Virus record (IMG/VR): IMGVR_UViG_3300028883_000033
Location: 32,001 to 96,000 of that record
Direction: 5' to 3' (one strand)
DNA length: 64,000 bases
Source: a virus
The position numbers were made by a program, and so were the translations under genes. A model generated the notes under the pieces. The model was not told the DNA's origin. It saw only the letters and a program-made list of their open reading frames with translations, and searched no databases. Below are positions 2,071 to 56,451 of the stretch, one piece after another; the stretch's first letter is position 1; the number at the start of each line of letters is the position of its first letter.

Positions 2071-3741
2071 TTATCCGGCTTCACCAGCAGGAGGCGTTTC
2101 TCCACCAGCAGCAGCACCGCCTTCAGCGCCCATGCCCATGTCACCTTCGCCTTCCATTCCGCCAGCTTCCATACCCATATCCATTCCGCCTAGGCCGCCG
2201 CCCATGCCGCCTCCGCCGCCTAGGCCGCCCATGCCGCCCATCATGTCTTCGCCAGGACCATAAAGTTGACCGTAGTCCTCTTTACCGCCATCTGGATCAA
2301 GACCTTTTTCTTCACGCAGCATGCGTTCGTTGCGGATGATCTCTTCGTCGGACATCATCAGGAAGCGTTTCATGATGAAGCGTTTTGAGAAGTACTGGAT
2401 ACCGTCTGCGGATCCGTAACTTGACAACAACTGGCTATCAAGCTCGAACTGACGATACTTGCCGAAGTTAGAAGGTTCAGGTAAACGGAGACGATACATT
2501 GACGGATCAACGTATACATTGCTATCCCGCAAAAATGCTTTGAACTCTTCATCGAATACTTTTTCGAGACGACCTTGTAAGCGCATAATGTATAGAGCAA
2601 AACGTAGCTCTTGAATATATGCAACGCCCGCTTTACCATCATTAAAGATGCCGCCGCCATCCGCCTGCTCCAGCATGTATGATGCTGGGACTTTCAGACC
2701 ACGCCACACCTTCTTCTGAAAGTATTCCAGATCAGACAATTCACCAAGACCTTGACCGCCTGGTAATGTTTCAACTTTAGAGCCGCGACCATCAGGACGC
2801 GCCGCAAAGAAGAAGTCTTCTGACATTGAATGTGGGTTGTATACAGAATCAACTTCCATCTGGCCACCATGAGCGTTTGGAATTTTCTTCTGTTTGATTT
2901 CATTCTTGATTGTCTCAAGATACTGCTTCACGCGTTGTGGAGGCATCTTACCAACGTCAATATAGAACACACGACGTTCCGGGGCACGTTGAACTCGGTA
3001 AATGATGATTGCATCTTCAAGGAGTTCTTTCTGTTTATGTGCACGGTATACGGGACGTAATACAGATTCACCGAACGGAGCAGTGTCCGACATATCATCA
3101 TTTAACGTAAAACGAACGATGTCTTTAGCATCAATAATTTCAGTTTCGTATTGCTGCTCCTGCTTGGCACCGATTGGTAGACCATACCCTCCGGCTTTAG
3201 GTTTGTTCGTATTTTTCTTGACCTGCCATGCTACAACCTTGGTCGCATCGTCAGCGTCAACGATAGCAGCGATAACATTCTTAGGGTGAACAAACTGCCA
3301 TTTTTCGAATTGAGTTTTGCCTTTGCGGAAGAACACATCGCCGTATTTGACCGTCATGCGGGCTACGTCGAAGATTTTATTCTCCCAATCATGGATCTGG
3401 TTCCAGCGGCGAAGAGCTGCTTTCACTGTCAGCACAGCAGAGCTTTCAATGTTCTCTTCTTCTTCGGATAGAATATCAATGTCAATTGGGTCGTCAGTTT
3501 TTGGATTGTTCCCCGACATCTCTTCAGCGATTGTATCAAGCGCACGGGAAACCTCGACGTCGTTATCCATGAGATCATACTCACGGTAACGTGTCATGCG
3601 GGATGCTGACCCCTGAACAAGACGCTGATACCAGGTGTAATTGTTATACGCACCGGCATCCGCCATCTCCTGGCTGTCTGTCATCTTGACGTGACCAGGT
3701 TGCGGGGTTACAAATTTGAAATAACTAGTCCACTTTGCCAT
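2071..3741 (-). CDS. gp20: Portal protein (T4 gp20-like)
   Basis: LLEDAIIIYRVQRAPERRVFYIDVGKMP, EDFFF, GRGSKVETLPGGQGLG, ELRF motifs; Gly/Met low-complexity tail. Confidence 0.96.
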   Translation of the reverse strand: MAKWTSYFKFVTPQPGHVKMTDSQEMADAGAYNNYTWYQRLVQGSASRMTRYREYDLMDNDVEVSRALDTIAEEMSGNNPKTDDPIDIDILSEEEENIESSAVLTVKAALRRWNQIHDWENKIFDVARMTVKYGDVFFRKGKTQFEKWQFVHPKNVIAAIVDADDATKVVAWQVKKNTNKPKAGGYGLPIGAKQEQQYETEIIDAKDIVRFTLNDDMSDTAPFGESVLRPVYRAHKQKELLEDAIIIYRVQRAPERRVFYIDVGKMPPQRVKQYLETIKNEIKQKKIPNAHGGQMEVDSVYNPHSMSEDFFFAARPDGRGSKVETLPGGQGLGELSDLEYFQKKVWRGLKVPASYMLEQADGGGIFNDGKAGVAYIQELRFALYIMRLQGRLEKVFDEEFKAFLRDSNVYVDPSMYRLRLPEPSNFGKYRQFELDSQLLSSYGSADGIQYFSKRFIMKRFLMMSDEEIIRNERMLREEKGLDPDGGKEDYGQLYGPGEDMMGGMGGLGGGGGMGGGLGGMDMGMEAGGMEGEGDMGMGAEGGAAAGGETPPAGEAG

Positions 3742-10467: not shown

Positions 10468-10791
10468 TTAAAGGATACTCATCGCGCGATTATACGCGTC
10501 AATCAATTCCTTGGAATTTCGATCAACTCTCAGTGGATTGAACCGTATAACAAACGTACGTTCGCTGGATGGAACATCAGTCCACCACCACATAATCTCA
10601 ACGCTAGCTTCGGGTGTGTAATCAAATGTAACCTTTGCATCGAACGTTGGATGATCTTCCTGAATATCCACCAATGTCATCATCGTTGTTGAGTTCATGG
10701 CCGTGCATGTGCTGGGGTCAGAAAAGTTTGACCACCCAAATGTGCTAAGCTCTGCTAGTAACCGTTTAATCACCGTATCTTCAAAGTTCAT
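10468..10791 (-). CDS. Hypothetical protein ending AYNRAMSIL
   Basis: ATGA-type overlap with upstream ORF; in operon. Confidence 0.65.
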   Translation of the reverse strand: MNFEDTVIKRLLAELSTFGWSNFSDPSTCTAMNSTTMMTLVDIQEDHPTFDAKVTFDYTPEASVEIMWWWTDVPSSERTFVIRFNPLRVDRNSKELIDAYNRAMSIL

Positions 10792-11015
10792 AATACGCTC
10801 ATCGCCCTCTCATATGCCTCTGCCAAATCATCCTTTTCTAGGATTACATCAACCACATGATCTTCATGATCGGTGCACACCCATCGGTTGTGCTCGCTCT
10901 TATAATAGAACTCACCATTGTTGGTATTGTACCAAATGTGTCCAAGAGGAGCATCTTTCGGTGGGGTTGGCCCAGTGGCTGGTGGCATTGGTAAAACTGA
11001 CATGTCAATCCTCAA
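10788..11015 (-). CDS. Hypothetical protein ending AYERAMSVL
   Basis: Overlaps gp46 stop; contains GHIWYNT...RW module. Confidence 0.6.
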   Translation of the reverse strand: MRIDMSVLPMPPATGPTPPKDAPLGHIWYNTNNGEFYYKSEHNRWVCTDHEDHVVDVILEKDDLAEAYERAMSVL

Positions 11016-13901: not shown

Positions 13902-14420
13902 TTAATATCCCAGCAAATCGTCGTCTGATTTTTCTTCTTGTTCTAAACGATTAGCATCTTCCATGTGCTGATCATGGTCTTCTTCGTCGTGAGCAGGCCG
14001 TTGGCTTTCATACTCCATCTGGTAATTGTACGAGGGCGTCAATCCCTTGTCAACCAGAATTTCATCACGTATCACGCGCTGTCTTTTTTCTTGGTTGAGA
14101 TATTGTATGAAGGAATTCTTGATACATTGCGTGAAGAAAGCGAAGGGGTTGTTACTTTTGGCAGGATCGAAGCTGTTCCACGTTCTAACGAGCATCATCA
14201 TCGCATATGCCTGCATGTCCTCGTTATACGTATAGTTCGCAAAGTTTCCCTTTTTTCCATACCGGGCGGTTAAGAGCGTGAGCATCTTTGCGAGCTCGTT
14301 CGACATCTTCCCCTCTTCCTTGCTGATGATAACTTGCGCGAGGAGATCCTTATTGTTTAAGTATTTGGTTTTTCTCTTTGGTGTCGGCTTCTTTTGTGCC
14401 GCTTCTTGTTTTTTTGCCAT
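13902..14420 (-). CDS. gp55: Late transcription sigma factor (gp55-like)
   Basis: YLNNKDLL, NFANYTYNEDM, FDPAKSNNPFAFFTQ, EKRQ; T4 synteny 55-47-46. Confidence 0.9.
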   Translation of the reverse strand: MAKKQEAAQKKPTPKRKTKYLNNKDLLAQVIISKEEGKMSNELAKMLTLLTARYGKKGNFANYTYNEDMQAYAMMMLVRTWNSFDPAKSNNPFAFFTQCIKNSFIQYLNQEKRQRVIRDEILVDKGLTPSYNYQMEYESQRPAHDEEDHDQHMEDANRLEQEEKSDDDLLGY

Positions 14421-50835: not shown

Positions 50836-51294
50836 ATGAGCGGTCTAAAGGATATAGACAGTTGGCGCAAAGTACACCTAGCTGTCGCAGAATTTGTGGA
50901 TGCATGGCGAATAATTCCACGTGCCGTTGTTGTAGTGTTTAGTTATGGCGTATACGGCGTAACAACATGGTACATGAATCTAAAACCTTACATACTCGAA
51001 GGGTGTGTTAAGGCAGCAGAATCTGTTCCTACTGAGTGCATCGTTCAAGCCCCAACAACACAACATACAGCACTATTAACGGCAATGTTCGCGTTGGCGG
51101 CAGCGGTGTTCGCTTTTTATTCAAACAACGGTAGAAAGTGGAATGGATTTTCCCATTGGAATACCAACGAGTCGAAGACGTCAGAAAGTGTGTATTGGCG
51201 CGAGGGCGAAGAGAAGCCAGTTCAGGACGAGCGTAAGGACGCGGATCGTCAGGGCCGCGCTGTTATAGAGAATGCGCGCGGGAATGGCGGTTAA
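50836..51294 (+). CDS. Two-TM membrane protein, holin-like
   Basis: DAWRIIPR followed by two hydrophobic segments and charged C-terminus; start revised to ATG 50836. Confidence 0.55.
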   Translation: MSGLKDIDSWRKVHLAVAEFVDAWRIIPRAVVVVFSYGVYGVTTWYMNLKPYILEGCVKAAESVPTECIVQAPTTQHTALLTAMFALAAAVFAFYSNNGRKWNGFSHWNTNESKTSESVYWREGEEKPVQDERKDADRQGRAVIENARGNGG

Positions 51295-52208
51295 CGACTA
51301 AACATCGGAACAAATTGTTCCGCTTGGTCTGCTACCTTCTTTAGCTCATACTTTCCAAGAAATTTCATAAAATGGAAGTATGAGAAAGTTCCAGGATCGT
51401 TAAGACCCGTTAGTACGGTCTTAACGATCCTTTCTTGTATGTCGTCTGGCTGGCTTTCAAGGTCCATCAGAAGCATGTTTTCATTGAACAGCTCTCTGAC
51501 TACAAACTCTTTTCCCGTCTGGTCCGTCCAACGTTCCATTAATAGATTGGCACGTTCGTATTCATCCTGATACGCTTTCAGAATTCGGGTTTTGCGTACG
51601 CGTGGTAGAGCGGATTGAACATTATCTCCCATATCACCACGCAGACACTTTTCAAACATGAATAGATCAGCGTCTCCGCCCCATTCATCAAGAGTCCTGT
51701 TCTTTCCTGTGGCTGGATCAATTAGTACTGTGTTCTTATGTCTGAGGAGCTGGATCATATCCTTATCTCCGCTAACAATAACGAACTCAGCATCATCATC
51801 AGTAACACTCAAAGTCTGGACGGCACCAGCGACTAGATCATCCGCCTCTAATCCATCACCAGCCAGAGTGATGATTGTAGTATGATCACGAATCATATCT
51901 TCAAAATCCCCGAGATGGCTGAGGAATAGCTCAAAGCGTTCCTTCTCTTTCGGAGTCATTTTTTGACGTCGTGTGCCTTTATACGGCTTTCCAGAAATAC
52001 ACACATCGGATGCGGTATATTCCTTTCGCCATGAGCTGCGGTCAAAGCACATAATGATCTTATGTGGCTTATAGTGCTTGAAGTATTTGTTGATTGTTAC
52101 TAACGCGGTGTGAGACGCCAGGCCTGCGACCGTGATATCATCTTCAGTTTTATGAGCGAAGAATGTGCGATATAGAATGTTCGTTACGTCGAGAACAAGG
52201 TATTTCAC
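51291..52208 (-). CDS. rnh: T4 RNase H-like 5'-3' exonuclease (FEN family)
   Basis: LVLD, SWRKE, YKGTR, EADD, VSGDKDMIQL, GDMGDNV. Confidence 0.9.
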   Translation of the reverse strand: MKYLVLDVTNILYRTFFAHKTEDDITVAGLASHTALVTINKYFKHYKPHKIIMCFDRSSWRKEYTASDVCISGKPYKGTRRQKMTPKEKERFELFLSHLGDFEDMIRDHTTIITLAGDGLEADDLVAGAVQTLSVTDDDAEFVIVSGDKDMIQLLRHKNTVLIDPATGKNRTLDEWGGDADLFMFEKCLRGDMGDNVQSALPRVRKTRILKAYQDEYERANLLMERWTDQTGKEFVVRELFNENMLLMDLESQPDDIQERIVKTVLTGLNDPGTFSYFHFMKFLGKYELKKVADQAEQFVPMFSR

Positions 52209-52594: not shown

Positions 52595-53317
52595 TTATAC
52601 CTGTGGTAGTACGTACACCGTCAAACCGTTAACAGGAAAGCTCAGAATGCCTTTTTGACCGATACTGAAAGTACCTTCCGGGTTGCTACGGAACAGTGCA
52701 AGTAGTGTCTTTGCGGGATATCTATGGGCAAATTTCGTTGTGGAGGCCACGTTGCCGTCATCATCCGGAACCAATTGAGCATCATCAGCGAATGTATGTT
52801 TAAACACATCATTGTTAACATCAACTAGCTCAAACGACACACCTTCGTTGCTAATGATGGATACGTTCTCGGCAGCCATCGCAGCTGCACCCTTCTGTAA
52901 GAGAGTTACAGCTTCGGAAGTTAGGTTCACTTGGTAACGGAGAACGTCATTGATTGAACGAGGCGCGTTGATTTTTGAAGGGTCGGCACAGCGATAATCA
53001 ATCTTAGTGCCTTTGCCTTTCAAAATTAGTGAAGTAGCAAATTCGCTATCGCCTTCATTCTTCGTGCTGTATTCGACTGAAAAGTTCTGGGTGGAGTTGG
53101 CGATTTCATATCGAGCCATCAACACATCAATTCGGTTGATACCGATGGAGTTAAACTCCATAGCTGGCACATCTTCATTCTGGAAGACTACAACTGTACG
53201 AGCATCATCCATTGCACGCACGGTGTTTGGTTCAATGATGATGTTGTCAATGCCAACAAGTTTAGCCGTTCTAACAACATTCAGAACGTAGGCAAGAGAT
53301 TCGGGTTTTAGTTTCAT
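52595..53317 (-). CDS. Probable sliding clamp (gp45-like)
   Basis: 240 aa alpha/beta two-domain pattern, IDYRCADPSKI resembles gp45 linker, between polymerase and RNase H. Confidence 0.6.
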   Translation of the reverse strand: MKLKPESLAYVLNVVRTAKLVGIDNIIIEPNTVRAMDDARTVVVFQNEDVPAMEFNSIGINRIDVLMARYEIANSTQNFSVEYSTKNEGDSEFATSLILKGKGTKIDYRCADPSKINAPRSINDVLRYQVNLTSEAVTLLQKGAAAMAAENVSIISNEGVSFELVDVNNDVFKHTFADDAQLVPDDDGNVASTTKFAHRYPAKTLLALFRSNPEGTFSIGQKGILSFPVNGLTVYVLPQV

Positions 53318-53353
53318 CGGTATTATGTCCTATAGTTATAATTTTGTGGCGTT

Positions 53354-53382
53354 ATTGTACTAAAAGTCCAGCAGATCGTCAA
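53354..53382 (-). promoter_or_regulatory. Sigma70-like promoter for clamp-like gene
   Basis: TTGACG-N17-TACAAT, overlapping end of DUF488-like gene. Confidence 0.6.
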
Positions 53383-53776
53383 CTACACGTCCCTGCTGCT
53401 CTGCAGCTAATTCTGCTTCATTCTTCCATTCCGGTATCCACCACCCTGTTCGGTGTTCGATCCATTGAGTAAACAGGTGTCGGTGACAGAAATCGCGAGG
53501 CGATTCGTAGCAAAGAAAGAACGTGGGGTCTGGAGTACTATTCAGCCAAGAGATCAGTTTATCTGAATCGTAATTGAGGTTGGTAAGAAGTTTAAAGTAC
53601 AACCTTGTATATTCTTGATGATCAATTTTTCCTTCACGTAGGTTCATTATCATGTCCCACGTGGGAGCAAACTCCGGCATATGCTCGCCTTGAAACCAGT
53701 CAGGTGGTTTGCGACTAATTGAAATTGCATTGGGGTGTGACCCCTTCCGGGCATAATTTGAAGTGTATATTGCCAT
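53360..53776 (-). CDS. DUF488-like protein with VDDLLDF tail
   Basis: IYTSNY, ISISRKPP, FAPTW, LCYE...FCHRH motifs. Confidence 0.75.
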   Translation of the reverse strand: MAIYTSNYARKGSHPNAISISRKPPDWFQGEHMPEFAPTWDMIMNLREGKIDHQEYTRLYFKLLTNLNYDSDKLISWLNSTPDPTFFLCYESPRDFCHRHLFTQWIEHRTGWWIPEWKNEAELAAEQQGRVVDDLLDF

Positions 53777-56451
53777 CAGAAATCCAATAAATCATCCACC
53801 AGTAATTCTTGTCGGGACGGTGCCTTTTTTCCAATTGCCCTGAAAATGTTGTTCAGGGGATTATCGACGAGGCGCTGTATATGTGCATCACGGTCGATAG
53901 TGTACTTCTCTAAGAACCATTCAGGCACTTGTTCAATATCAACAGGAATGGCGATGCTCTTGAACTTACCATACTTCTGAGTCAGGTAGAAGACCTTGAT
54001 CTTCATCCCTGTCATAATTCGCATGCTCTCTTTATCGCCATATTCATCCAGACATTGGTTATAAAAGATTGATGCAGCTACATGCCCGGGTAACCGAGTA
54101 CCTTCGCCGTGGATCTTATACTCTTGCGTGTAGTGTTCAACTTTCTTAACGCCCTTTGGAAGTCCAATGGACATTACGTCATCAGTAGTTTTAATTGAGT
54201 CTTTATAGTCGACAATATCTTTAGCAATATCATCCCACTGATCGCCTTTCAGGTACCGTTCAACAAATCCGTTGAGCACTTTCGATACTTCTTTTGGAAG
54301 GGTGGTTTTCTTGGTGTCAAGACCCATTACCTTCATCTTGTCAACTTTATCGCCTTCGTTGTCGACGATATGTAAGATGTATCGTTTCTTATCCACAAAG
54401 ATGCCACGATCGGATACGATCTCACGACCACAGGCAATCTTGTCGTTGAATCCTTCAGTACTAAGGAATGTGTCTTCCATGAACCCCTGAAACGAATCGC
54501 TAACAAGCTCACCAACTTTATCAGCAAATTTTACTGCTTCGTCAATGTTCTCGGCGCGTGTAACAAAATAGCTGGAATCGGTATCGCCGTATACGACAGA
54601 CCATTTATCAGAATAACCAAAATGATCACGACCCTCATCGTCTTTAACATGAACGTCGGGTAGTGTGTATTCCCCATCAAGAATTTCACATGCCTTGGCG
54701 CACTGATGCAGAAGAATCATTCGTCCTGTGCCAGTAGTACTCTCTCCCATTCGCAGATCATAGAATCGGAAATACGCGTTTGTTAGAGCGCCGTAGAATG
54801 AGTTTAACTTGATCTTGTATACGTACTGGAGCTTATCATAATATGTTGCTTTAACTTTATCACCAGCTTCTTTTGCTTCGGCTTTCAGCCGCTGATATTT
54901 TTTGCGGGTAGCATACCAGTCTTCCAGGATCTTAGGAATAATTCCTTGCTTTTCTTGGCTGAACACTGTTCCATATCCACTAACAGCCCAGCCTTTCTCG
55001 ATGAACGTGTCACGCCACTCATCTGCAGTTGCTGTTATGGTTTGTCCTCGTAATCTTGGAGGAACTTGTGTCGCGTCATCAAACGTACACGTTAATGCAG
55101 CAGCGGATCCCTTTGCTATTTCTTCGCACGCTTTGATTCGCTCATCAAACTGACCCATTAATGTTTCCGGACTGATGTTGATAGCGCGAATAGCGGAAGG
55201 GTATAGAGAGTTGATGTCGATTGAACCTACATTCTCATGTAGACCAATCTGTGGTAGCAATACGAATGCGCCTTGGATACTCCCAGAGTCTTCAGACTTA
55301 TGGAAGTCGTTTACTATCAAACCACCTAGTTCATGATGGCAGTAGTTGACGGCAGCATATTCAGCGAGCTTCAGGGTTCCTGTGACGTACTTCCAGACGC
55401 CAGTAGATAGATGCATCATTTGGTTAGCAAGTTCAACATATCCTAGACGTTCTTCGAGACCCTGTAGGATCTCAGTATCACGGATGTTGTACCGAACGAA
55501 CCATGCAAAGTTATCGCGGTATAGTTTGGCTAATGACCCTTCATATTCCAACTTAGGTAAGTCGGTTAACATTTCATCGGCAATAGCTTCCAACTTGTAT
55601 GATGGGCGTTCAGCCATTTCATACTTACGAAACAGTACCATATAGTCAGCAGCAATACGTCCAAACGTATCGAGGGTGACGTTGATGTTACCCATCACCT
55701 CAACTTCGCGGAATTTTGGATCGGGTGCACCAGGGAACGACATCTTGCGGAAATACTTCTTGCCGAGTCTAAGCAATCGTTTTGCGATGTATGGGTGGTC
55801 AAAGAAGTCTGAGTTCCAACCACATATTACATCACTGTCCTCAATCTCATCGATCAAGTACATCAGCAGCTCTGTTTCATTTGCACAGAAGATAATCTCA
55901 AGCTCCATATCCGGAGGGAGCTTGGCTATGCTGTGCATCTGCTGAACGAAATCCTCAGGGGCTTCCCCCGCTTCCCAAGTATCGTCTGTTGGGTTCATTG
56001 TTGCAAGGTTTGGAGGAATTGCAAGAACAACATACTTGCGTTTCCACATATGCACCAATGCCACTGAGTTGATCACTGCATATGGATTTTGTATTGAAGC
56101 GAATCCGATTTCGGGTGAGTAATCCACCTCGATATCGAGAAATGTCATGTTTAACTTTGGTGCAGGAACGTTGTAGTAGTGCTCGGATAGCACTTTCATT
56201 TCCATTGGGATGTCAGATTCGAAAAGCTCAATGCCATCTGACTCAAGCCGCTCACGAGCTTGTTGGAATGTTCTTGTATCAGGAAACTCGTGACGTTTTA
56301 ACTTATCGCCATACATGCTGGTGTATGGTCCGTCGGGATCGCGGGTGTAGAAGTAATATGGAGCTCGAAATGTTTTCAGCTCTCTACCTTGATCGGTACG
56401 CTCCCAAACGAGAACGTCGTCTCTTATTCTTACGGCGTCTATGTAACTCAT
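53776..56451 (-). CDS. gp43: Family B DNA polymerase (gp43-like)
   Basis: Exo FLDIE, GWNSDFFD, YNIRD; Pol DINSLYPS, KIKLNSFYG, YGDTDS. Confidence 0.97.
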   Translation of the reverse strand: MSYIDAVRIRDDVLVWERTDQGRELKTFRAPYYFYTRDPDGPYTSMYGDKLKRHEFPDTRTFQQARERLESDGIELFESDIPMEMKVLSEHYYNVPAPKLNMTFLDIEVDYSPEIGFASIQNPYAVINSVALVHMWKRKYVVLAIPPNLATMNPTDDTWEAGEAPEDFVQQMHSIAKLPPDMELEIIFCANETELLMYLIDEIEDSDVICGWNSDFFDHPYIAKRLLRLGKKYFRKMSFPGAPDPKFREVEVMGNINVTLDTFGRIAADYMVLFRKYEMAERPSYKLEAIADEMLTDLPKLEYEGSLAKLYRDNFAWFVRYNIRDTEILQGLEERLGYVELANQMMHLSTGVWKYVTGTLKLAEYAAVNYCHHELGGLIVNDFHKSEDSGSIQGAFVLLPQIGLHENVGSIDINSLYPSAIRAINISPETLMGQFDERIKACEEIAKGSAAALTCTFDDATQVPPRLRGQTITATADEWRDTFIEKGWAVSGYGTVFSQEKQGIIPKILEDWYATRKKYQRLKAEAKEAGDKVKATYYDKLQYVYKIKLNSFYGALTNAYFRFYDLRMGESTTGTGRMILLHQCAKACEILDGEYTLPDVHVKDDEGRDHFGYSDKWSVVYGDTDSSYFVTRAENIDEAVKFADKVGELVSDSFQGFMEDTFLSTEGFNDKIACGREIVSDRGIFVDKKRYILHIVDNEGDKVDKMKVMGLDTKKTTLPKEVSKVLNGFVERYLKGDQWDDIAKDIVDYKDSIKTTDDVMSIGLPKGVKKVEHYTQEYKIHGEGTRLPGHVAASIFYNQCLDEYGDKESMRIMTGMKIKVFYLTQKYGKFKSIAIPVDIEQVPEWFLEKYTIDRDAHIQRLVDNPLNNIFRAIGKKAPSRQELLVDDLLDF

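Follow-up and report, generated by a model that had tools for sequence, protein, structure and literature searches.

The stretch of DNA analyzed here (the window, 64,000 nucleotides) comprises positions 32001-96000 of the 147,644-bp virus record IMGVR_UViG_3300028883_000033, for which CheckV gives a completeness of about 43%. Its minus strand carries a replication block in the order family-B DNA polymerase, 138-residue gene, 240-residue gene, 127-residue gene, and RNase H/FEN-type exonuclease. Our subject is the 138-residue protein, a member of the DUF488-N3a family that ends in the same seven residues, VDDLLDF, as the polymerase encoded directly upstream of it. We consider it likely that this protein is an enzyme tethered by the shared peptide to the sliding clamp of the phage, which would be the product of the 240-residue gene. 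The features concerned are the following, all on the minus strand.

53776..56451, minus strand: family-B (T4 gp43-type) DNA polymerase, 891 residues (Pfam DNA_pol_B 2.7e-40, DNA_pol_B_exo1; phrog_262 1.6e-160)
53779..53799, minus strand: C-terminal tail of the polymerase, VDDLLDF, presumed clamp-binding epitope (translation of the open reading frame)
53360..53776, minus strand: putative DUF488-N3a enzyme, 138 residues (Pfam PF22751; phrog_2450 9.5e-29)
53480..53512, minus strand: putative active-site loop, C89-R99, LCYE...FCHR (invariant residues and predicted model)
53384..53428, minus strand: variable helical linker, about residues 117-131, joining core to tail (alignment and predicted model)
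53363..53383, minus strand: C-terminal tail of the DUF488 protein, VDDLLDF, presumed clamp-binding epitope (translation, conservation, and co-variation)
53354..53382, minus strand: sigma-70-type promoter-like site TTGACG-17-TACAAT over the tail codons, ahead of the clamp gene (motif match; conserved in relatives)
52595..53317, minus strand: PCNA/gp45-type sliding clamp, 240 residues (predicted fold, Foldseek; phrog_223 processivity factor 6.9e-5)
51291..52208, minus strand: RNase H/FEN-type 5'-3' exonuclease, end of the conserved replication block (Pfam 5_3_exonuc_N 1.3e-18; phrog_107; synteny in relatives)
13902..14420, minus strand: gp55-like late sigma factor, 172 residues, C terminus SDDDLLGY (Pfam; phrog_234)

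The polymerase, whose top sequence matches in the PDB are RB69/T4 gp43, ends in ...ELLVDDLLDF, and the DUF488-like protein, which contains FFLCYES...FCHRH, ends in ...GRVVDDLLDF. An earlier note, made from the letters of the window alone, had recorded these two endings as LLVDDLLDF and RVVDDLLDF together with the SDDDLLGY of the late sigma factor, had placed the DUF488 gene (53360-53776) between the polymerase and the clamp-like 240-residue gene, and had counted six unlike codons among the seven that spell the common heptapeptide. The translations of the record bear out each of these observations, the codons being GTG GAT GAT TTA TTG GAT TTC in the polymerase gene and GTT GAC GAT CTG CTG GAC TTT in the DUF488 gene. 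The whole 147,644-bp record holds 987 open reading frames (ORFs) of at least 40 residues, and the ending DDLL.[FY], which the note took for the clamp motif of this phage, is found in exactly three of them, namely the polymerase, the DUF488 protein, and the late sigma factor, where about 0.002 would be expected from composition. When the last seven residues of 508 ORFs were compared all against all without a preset motif (128,778 pairs), the polymerase and the DUF488 protein made up the top pair with a BLOSUM score of 36; the second-best pair scored 28, and the mean was -6.5 with a standard deviation of 5.5. The 172-residue ORF is identified as a late sigma factor by Pfam Sigma70_r2 (PF04542; 25.3 bits against a cut-off of 24) and by phrog_234 (3e-29), and no small gp33-like protein carrying the tail was found among the 987 ORFs. 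The note had also rejected a recent DNA duplication as the origin of the identical tails, and this origin is ruled out by the six differing codons of seven together with the retention of the tail in homologues of 38-82% identity.

We examined the conservation of the tail in related phages. The record probably represents only part of a jumbo-phage genome of about 350 kb; among its relatives, G003 (363.5 kb) has a completeness rating of 100%. The phage belongs to an uncultured clade of jumbo phages near XacN1, RAS14, and RsoM2USA. Its closest cultured kin are Xoo-sp13, XacN1, RAS14/CM1, and RsoM2USA, all of them jumbo phages, with a polymerase identity of 38-46%, and a megablast search of the region against GenBank phages returned no match. 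DUF488 homologues of similar length numbered 45 at E ≤ 1e-19, with 38-82% identity over approximately 80-100% coverage. Their conserved core ends near EWKNE and is followed by a stretch that varies in both sequence and length and then by a terminal [VL]-[DE]-x-[LIF]-[LIF]-x-[FLV]. By a strict pattern the tail is present in 38 of 49 aligned sequences, and by eye in about 40 of the 45 close homologues, down to approximately 38% identity, so that the peptide noticed in one genome is kept by its relatives; the three most distant aligned sequences are without the pattern. A conserved peptide behind a variable linker is, by analogy, the picture expected of a docking peptide carried on a linker, as in T4 gp55, where the epitope is preceded by a variable 17-residue linker (PMC2988020).

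The polymerases of the relatives carry x[DE]x[LFM][LFV]x[FY] at their extreme ends, with freely varying codons, and those of cultured relatives end in LLFDSLVEY, LLFDDLVFY, and ILNSLLEF, which indicates that this polymerase lineage has long possessed a tail of the form [DEN]x-L-[LV]-x-[FY]. Among 16 non-redundant genomes, polymerase and DUF488 tails resemble one another more within a genome than in shuffled pairs: the same-genome BLOSUM sum was 336, compared with 247 ± 16.5 after shuffling, and none of 20,000 shuffles (which disregard kinship among the genomes) reached it. Phe replaces Leu at position -3 in both proteins of three loci, L005 (DDLFLF in the polymerase and DELFMV in the DUF488 protein), L008 (DLFGEF and DDLFGL), and L021 (ESFFEF and DEFFTF), and Phe stands at -4 in both proteins of L019 and L021. 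If the two unrelated proteins occupy a common binding pocket, substitutions of this parallel kind are to be expected. In the complete 363.5-kb relative, 3 of 2083 ORFs end in D.[LIMF][LIMF].[FYW]; these are the polymerase, the DUF488 protein, and a 52-residue ORF that is probably not a gene.

The arrangement of the genes is conserved as well. The start codon of the DUF488 gene overlaps the stop codon of the polymerase gene by 1 nt (TGATG), an overlap usually kept in relatives where the two genes abut, and the order polymerase-DUF488-clamp-x-RNase H is kept in a clade of metagenomic and IMG/VR contigs. In all relatives the clamp gene is situated between the genes for the polymerase and RNase H. 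In the cultured relatives it follows the polymerase gene directly or after one small ORF, with no intervening DUF488 gene, and the nearest cultured phages have no DUF488-N3a orthologue, the one match being an 18-bit match in XacN1. Two of the retrieved loci have polymerase genes longer by approximately 390 residues (L008:6153-10001, 1282 residues; L015:2168-5992, 1274 residues), the one in L008 including intein-splicing and LAGLIDADG domains.

The proposed partner of the tail, the 240-residue protein, had been called clamp-like in the earlier note, which made its whole proposal depend on that identity. The protein has no match in Pfam and none in NCBIfam, and its PHROG match, to the processivity factor family phrog_223, is weak. 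An exhaustive HMMER search gave 461 relatives, 78 of which were aligned for an AlphaFold2 model with a mean predicted local distance difference test score (pLDDT) of 97.8 and a predicted template modeling (TM) score of 0.92, in which four helix/sheet repeats are seen. Foldseek returned at least 500 significant PDB matches for this model, and among the matches listed (E approximately 2e-9 to 2e-8) all are PCNA, a 9-1-1 subunit, or T4 gp45. For T4 gp45 itself the TM scores were 0.63/0.67 (3u61_F) and 0.64/0.66 (6drt_A, gp45 with a ligase peptide), and the fold matches include the peptide-bound clamp structures 1rxm, 3p83, and 6drt. The model thus confirms the suspicion, and we assign the 240-residue protein with confidence to the PCNA/gp45-fold sliding clamps on the strength of its predicted structure. 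A gp44-type clamp loader is encoded in the complete relative G003 (phrog_168 6.2e-72); in the approximately 43%-complete record of the window, searches with AAA and DNA_pol3_delta2 models found none.

The 138-residue protein matches the Pfam family PF22751 (DUF488-N3a, described as the "active DUF488-N3 subclade") over residues 20-109 with 36.8 bits against a cut-off of 27 (E 5.5e-9), and its neighbors in the ESM Atlas are PF22751 clusters, mostly viral. To our knowledge, no biochemical activity has been established for this subclade. The AlphaFold2 model (pLDDT 92) comprises a compact core, residues 1-117, and a helix, residues 120-136, with the confidence declining toward the C terminus to a pLDDT of 82 and then of about 61 over the last residues. 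Across the 49 aligned sequences, Cys-89, Phe-96, Cys-97, His-98, Arg-99, Pro-38, and Tyr-60 are invariant, and Tyr-4 to Ala-9 (the YTSNY segment), Tyr-90, and Glu-91 are at least 90% conserved, all of which the window protein possesses. In the predicted model, the putative catalytic loop follows strand 85-89 and precedes helix 98-110. Because Cys-89 and Cys-97-His-98-Arg-99 are invariant, and YTSNY and Glu-91 nearly so, we argue for catalysis.

The nature of the chemistry is a matter of best guess. A Foldseek search of the PDB with the model gave no match at E ≤ 0.001, the DUF488 profile matched no PDB sequence at E ≤ 1, and NCBIfam contained no match. Alignment of the model with VIA-align produced weak likenesses to tetrapyrrole/diphthine-type methylases (best Z of 5.0, for CbiL), to dual-specificity phosphatases (Z of 3.0-3.5), and to RapZ (Z of 3.2). 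The structural neighbors among viral proteins are DUF488 proteins, followed by DUF4326 proteins; these neighbors, the membership in PF22751, and the conserved Cys...Cys-His-Arg loop are what the protein shares with the DUF488 superfamily. Cysteine-dependent transfer or hydrolysis of phosphate or sugar phosphate on DNA is, judged from the conserved residues, the most likely chemistry, for example in end cleaning or in the addition or removal of a modification, and is favored over a structural role. The weak rhodanese-phosphatase-like signal in the predicted fold is compatible with the part in repair or de-modification of DNA that the earlier note had suggested. DUF488 proteins are common in phages, among them phiKZ-like phages, Lak megaphages, and many uncultured lineages, and the window protein also matches defense-candidate models of PADLOC (PDC-M45C, 2e-7; PDC-M19A very weakly, 0.005), so that DUF488 domains are present on both the phage and the defense sides. 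Among the titles and abstracts listed by a full-text search of the DUF488 literature, none dealt with clamp binding.

The earlier note had cautioned that the tail codons of the DUF488 gene overlap a promoter, and this caution was justified. The site, TTGACG-17-TACAAT at 53382..53354 on the minus strand, has 10 of 12 matches and is the best in the region, and it is conserved in relatives as GTT GAC ... TAG TATAAT. The -35 element TTGAC falls within the Val-Asp codons at -7 and -6, which are nearly fixed as GTT GAC in 16 relatives (GTT in 14 of 14 Val codons and GAC in 10 of 13 Asp codons). The residues x-L-L-x-F and the stop codon are encoded by the 17-nt spacer; this stop codon is TAG in 14 of the 16 genomes, and the -10 element follows it immediately as TATAAT, TATACT, or TATAGT in the relatives and as TACAAT in the window. 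The tail might then be conserved mainly as the promoter of the clamp gene, its likeness to the polymerase tail being the relic of an old duplication of the polymerase 3'-end with no protein function, and the geometry of a promoter would fix the length of the tail too. We consider this explanation decidedly improbable. The spacer of a sigma-70 promoter is not constrained in sequence, yet the residues it encodes here remain Leu, Ile, or Phe at -4 and -3 and Phe, Leu, or Val at -1 while their codons range over CTG, TTG, CTA, TTA, ATA, ATC, TTT, and others. The same residues shift in parallel with the tail of the polymerase, whose codons contain no such promoter; the ending is kept where no clamp gene lies downstream (L007, ...DLLQF); and other clades bear a different clamp-type motif. 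Because the hydrophobic positions in the spacer use many codons and co-vary with the polymerase, the promoter alone cannot explain the peptide. The variety of codons at the Leu/Ile/Phe positions argues for selection on the protein, so that the Val-Asp pair and the tail length appear to be doubly constrained and the LLxF part not to be constrained by the promoter.

Two other explanations accept a function for the peptide or the protein and differ over what it is. The tail might bind another component of the replisome, such as the clamp loader, a gp32-type single-strand-binding protein, or the polymerase, in the manner of the DDDIPF-type tails by which single-strand-binding proteins (SSB) engage their partners. 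Asp-Asp-Leu-Leu-x-Phe is, as a matter of general knowledge, a composition common to several peptides that dock within the replisome, and the translational coupling of the DUF488 gene to the polymerase gene would suit such a partner. We nevertheless think it unlikely: the gene immediately precedes that of the clamp, distant family members bear the β-clamp consensus QLSLF and not an SSB-type tail, and the same peptide is found on the polymerase and the late sigma factor, which in T4-type phages are the two classical ligands of gp45 (PMC2988020). Alternatively, the DUF488 protein might bind the clamp as a regulator and not as an enzyme, competing with the polymerase or the late sigma factor and, for example, timing the passage from replication to late transcription. 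The T4 clamp does couple replication to late transcription, and competition would in principle be expected of a tail identical to that of the polymerase. A pure competitor, however, needs no conserved catalytic-looking core, whereas Cys-89, Cys-97, His-98, Arg-99, and YTSNY are invariant or nearly so in 49 sequences; the protein belongs to a Pfam subclade labeled active (PF22751), and its relatives with β-type tails are located in enzyme-rich, modification-like modules. We regard a purely regulatory role as very improbable.

Several observations weigh against a clamp-tethered enzyme. The conserved -35 and -10 elements could account at the DNA level for part of the conservation of the tail and for its fixed length. 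Only about two to four of the Leu-to-Phe changes are independent events, and the shuffle and enrichment statistics take no account of genome kinship. Two polymerase-linked DUF488 homologues, L022 and L023, are without the canonical ending. In L023 (polymerase 2-2476, DUF488 3152-3592) neither protein has a terminal aromatic residue, the endings being ...FDSMLGD and ...VERFLKDE, which may represent a further joint change of the docking motif. The late-sigma tails of four relatives are only partly alike (SSDILEF, SEELISYKK, ...DKFVDPDTK, and ...AVLPEE), and a search for clamp pocket residues that co-vary with the Phe or Leu type of tail found only heterogeneous columns. Finally, the links of the DUF488 fold to known enzymes are weak only (Z ≤ 5).

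A second line of evidence comes from distant members of the family. The DUF488 alignment retrieved 79 IMG/VR loci, of which 63 are unlinked to a gp43-type polymerase, and the proteins of these unlinked loci often end in QQLSLFD, EQASLF, EPSLWD, EPTLF, QNSLF, or QRTLF after Lys/Glu-rich linkers. QL[SD]LF is the motif by which Pol II, Pol IV, UmuC, MutS, and other proteins bind the bacterial β-clamp. An ending of [STAD]L[FW] plus at most two residues occurs in 21 of 52 unique DUF488-N3a proteins, compared with 4 of 1583 other ORFs of the same loci (Fisher 4e-30). Two of these four background ORFs, L059:3394-3837 (147 residues) and L080:7948-9126 (392 residues), are uncharacterized and end in QEQLTLF and EDDLF, respectively; the first ending is β-clamp-like, and its protein may be another client of the clamp in that phage; the second fits the pattern only. 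In five such phage genomes that are 91-100% complete, no match to DnaN was obtained with a model of its N-terminal domain, the only clamp model searched, and the partner would therefore be the clamp of the host. In a tree of the cores with the tails removed, the clade with gp45-type tails adjoins one clade with β-type tails, and a second large β-tail clade (support 99/86) is sister to a tail-less clade, which suggests that the tail type was exchanged or gained more than once. These patterns point to clamp docking as a property of the DUF488-N3a family and not an accident of this genome.

At L046:7872-9959, at L096:15621-17696 (G009), and in approximately 25 IMG/VR loci (L026-L081), the β-tail DUF488 gene belongs to a conserved module. 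Its partners there are a ParB_N-like protein, about 240 residues long, and a protein of about 690 residues that combines Amidoligase_2, DAM-like-phage2, and GNAT-phage-like domains. From its gene content the module looks like a DNA-hypermodification system, and these partners suggest that the substrate is DNA. ATP-grasp, ThiF, and octopine-dehydrogenase-like genes frequently lie close to the module. The Dam-like/amidoligase partner is absent from the lineage of the window, and the module is thereby ruled out as an explanation of function here. Elsewhere in the record of the window, three small minus-strand ORFs of 107, 75, and 74 residues (10468-10791 and 10788-11015 in window coordinates, and 113071-113295 in genome coordinates, outside the window) end in [NED]RAM[ST][IV]L and may be small paralogues.

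We infer that the DUF488-N3a protein, like a T4-type clamp client, would consist of three parts: a catalytic core (residues 1-117, with Cys-89, Cys-97-His-98-Arg-99, and YTSNY), a variable helical linker, and the terminal acidic-hydrophobic VDDLLDF. The translational coupling of its gene to that of the polymerase implies that the two proteins would be made together. By analogy with T4, VDDLLDF would insert into the hydrophobic ligand site of the clamp encoded downstream, one clamp subunit could then hold the DUF488 protein beside the polymerase, as in a toolbelt model, and the clamp would bring it to nascent DNA, at primer-template junctions and at nicks. The conservation of the tail and its co-variation with that of the polymerase thus support the proposal of the earlier note that DDLLx(F/Y) serves this phage as a clamp motif and that the DUF488 protein rides the clamp.

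This protein would be a new client of a well known mechanism, that of the T4 epitopes and of PIP-box (PCNA-interacting peptide) and β-motif enzymes, and not a new kind of system. The clamp epitopes at the C termini of T4 gp43, gp55, and gp33 are hydrophobic-acidic and interchangeable, and variable linkers precede them (PMC2988020). The window resembles T4 and RB69 in the short hydrophobic-acidic peptide at the extreme C terminus behind a variable linker, in a peptide common to the polymerase and the late sigma factor of one phage, and in a clamp of the gp45/PCNA fold. It differs from T4 in its consensus, which is [VL][DE]x[LIF][LIF]x[FY] and not of the SLDFL/LFDMFDF type, and in its third carrier, which is a putative enzyme and not a transcription factor. 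A presumed DNA-processing enzyme on a flexibly linked peptide recalls the PIP-box clients of PCNA (FEN1, UNG2, RNase H2, DNMT1, and ligase I) and T4 DNA ligase on gp45 (6drt); unlike the PIP-box clients, the DUF488 protein carries a copy of the tail of the polymerase itself. Unlike β-motif proteins, it has no QL[SD]LF motif; endings of that type are seen on more distant phage DUF488-N3a proteins.

A docking tail of this kind would tell where and when the enzyme acts, namely behind the fork, where DNA has primer ends and nicks, and the embedded promoter would have one stretch of DNA encode both a docking peptide and the promoter for the gene of its docking partner. A broader and more speculative possibility, which we hold only tentatively and think less likely to be true than false, is that DUF488-N3a is a widespread family of phage enzymes that work on DNA while riding the clamp, performing a cysteine-based, replication-coupled step, with the tail exchanged to fit the clamp present (gp45/PCNA-type in jumbo phages and host β in smaller phages). 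If this is true, the step might remove a defense-imposed adduct or blocked end, of the ADP-ribose or phosphate type, from nascent phage DNA, or it might be the completing step of a hypermodification in which the ParB-like and amidoligase/Dam-like/GNAT partners of the β-tail clade also take part. A tail type that follows the resident clamp, whether phage gp45-type or bacterial β, would amount to a natural experiment in which tethering itself is under selection, and the tail rule may serve as a simple sequence predictor of clamp ligands in uncultured phages. An uncharacterized family would in this way become testable, with a defined partner, a defined peptide, active-site residues, and a class of substrate.

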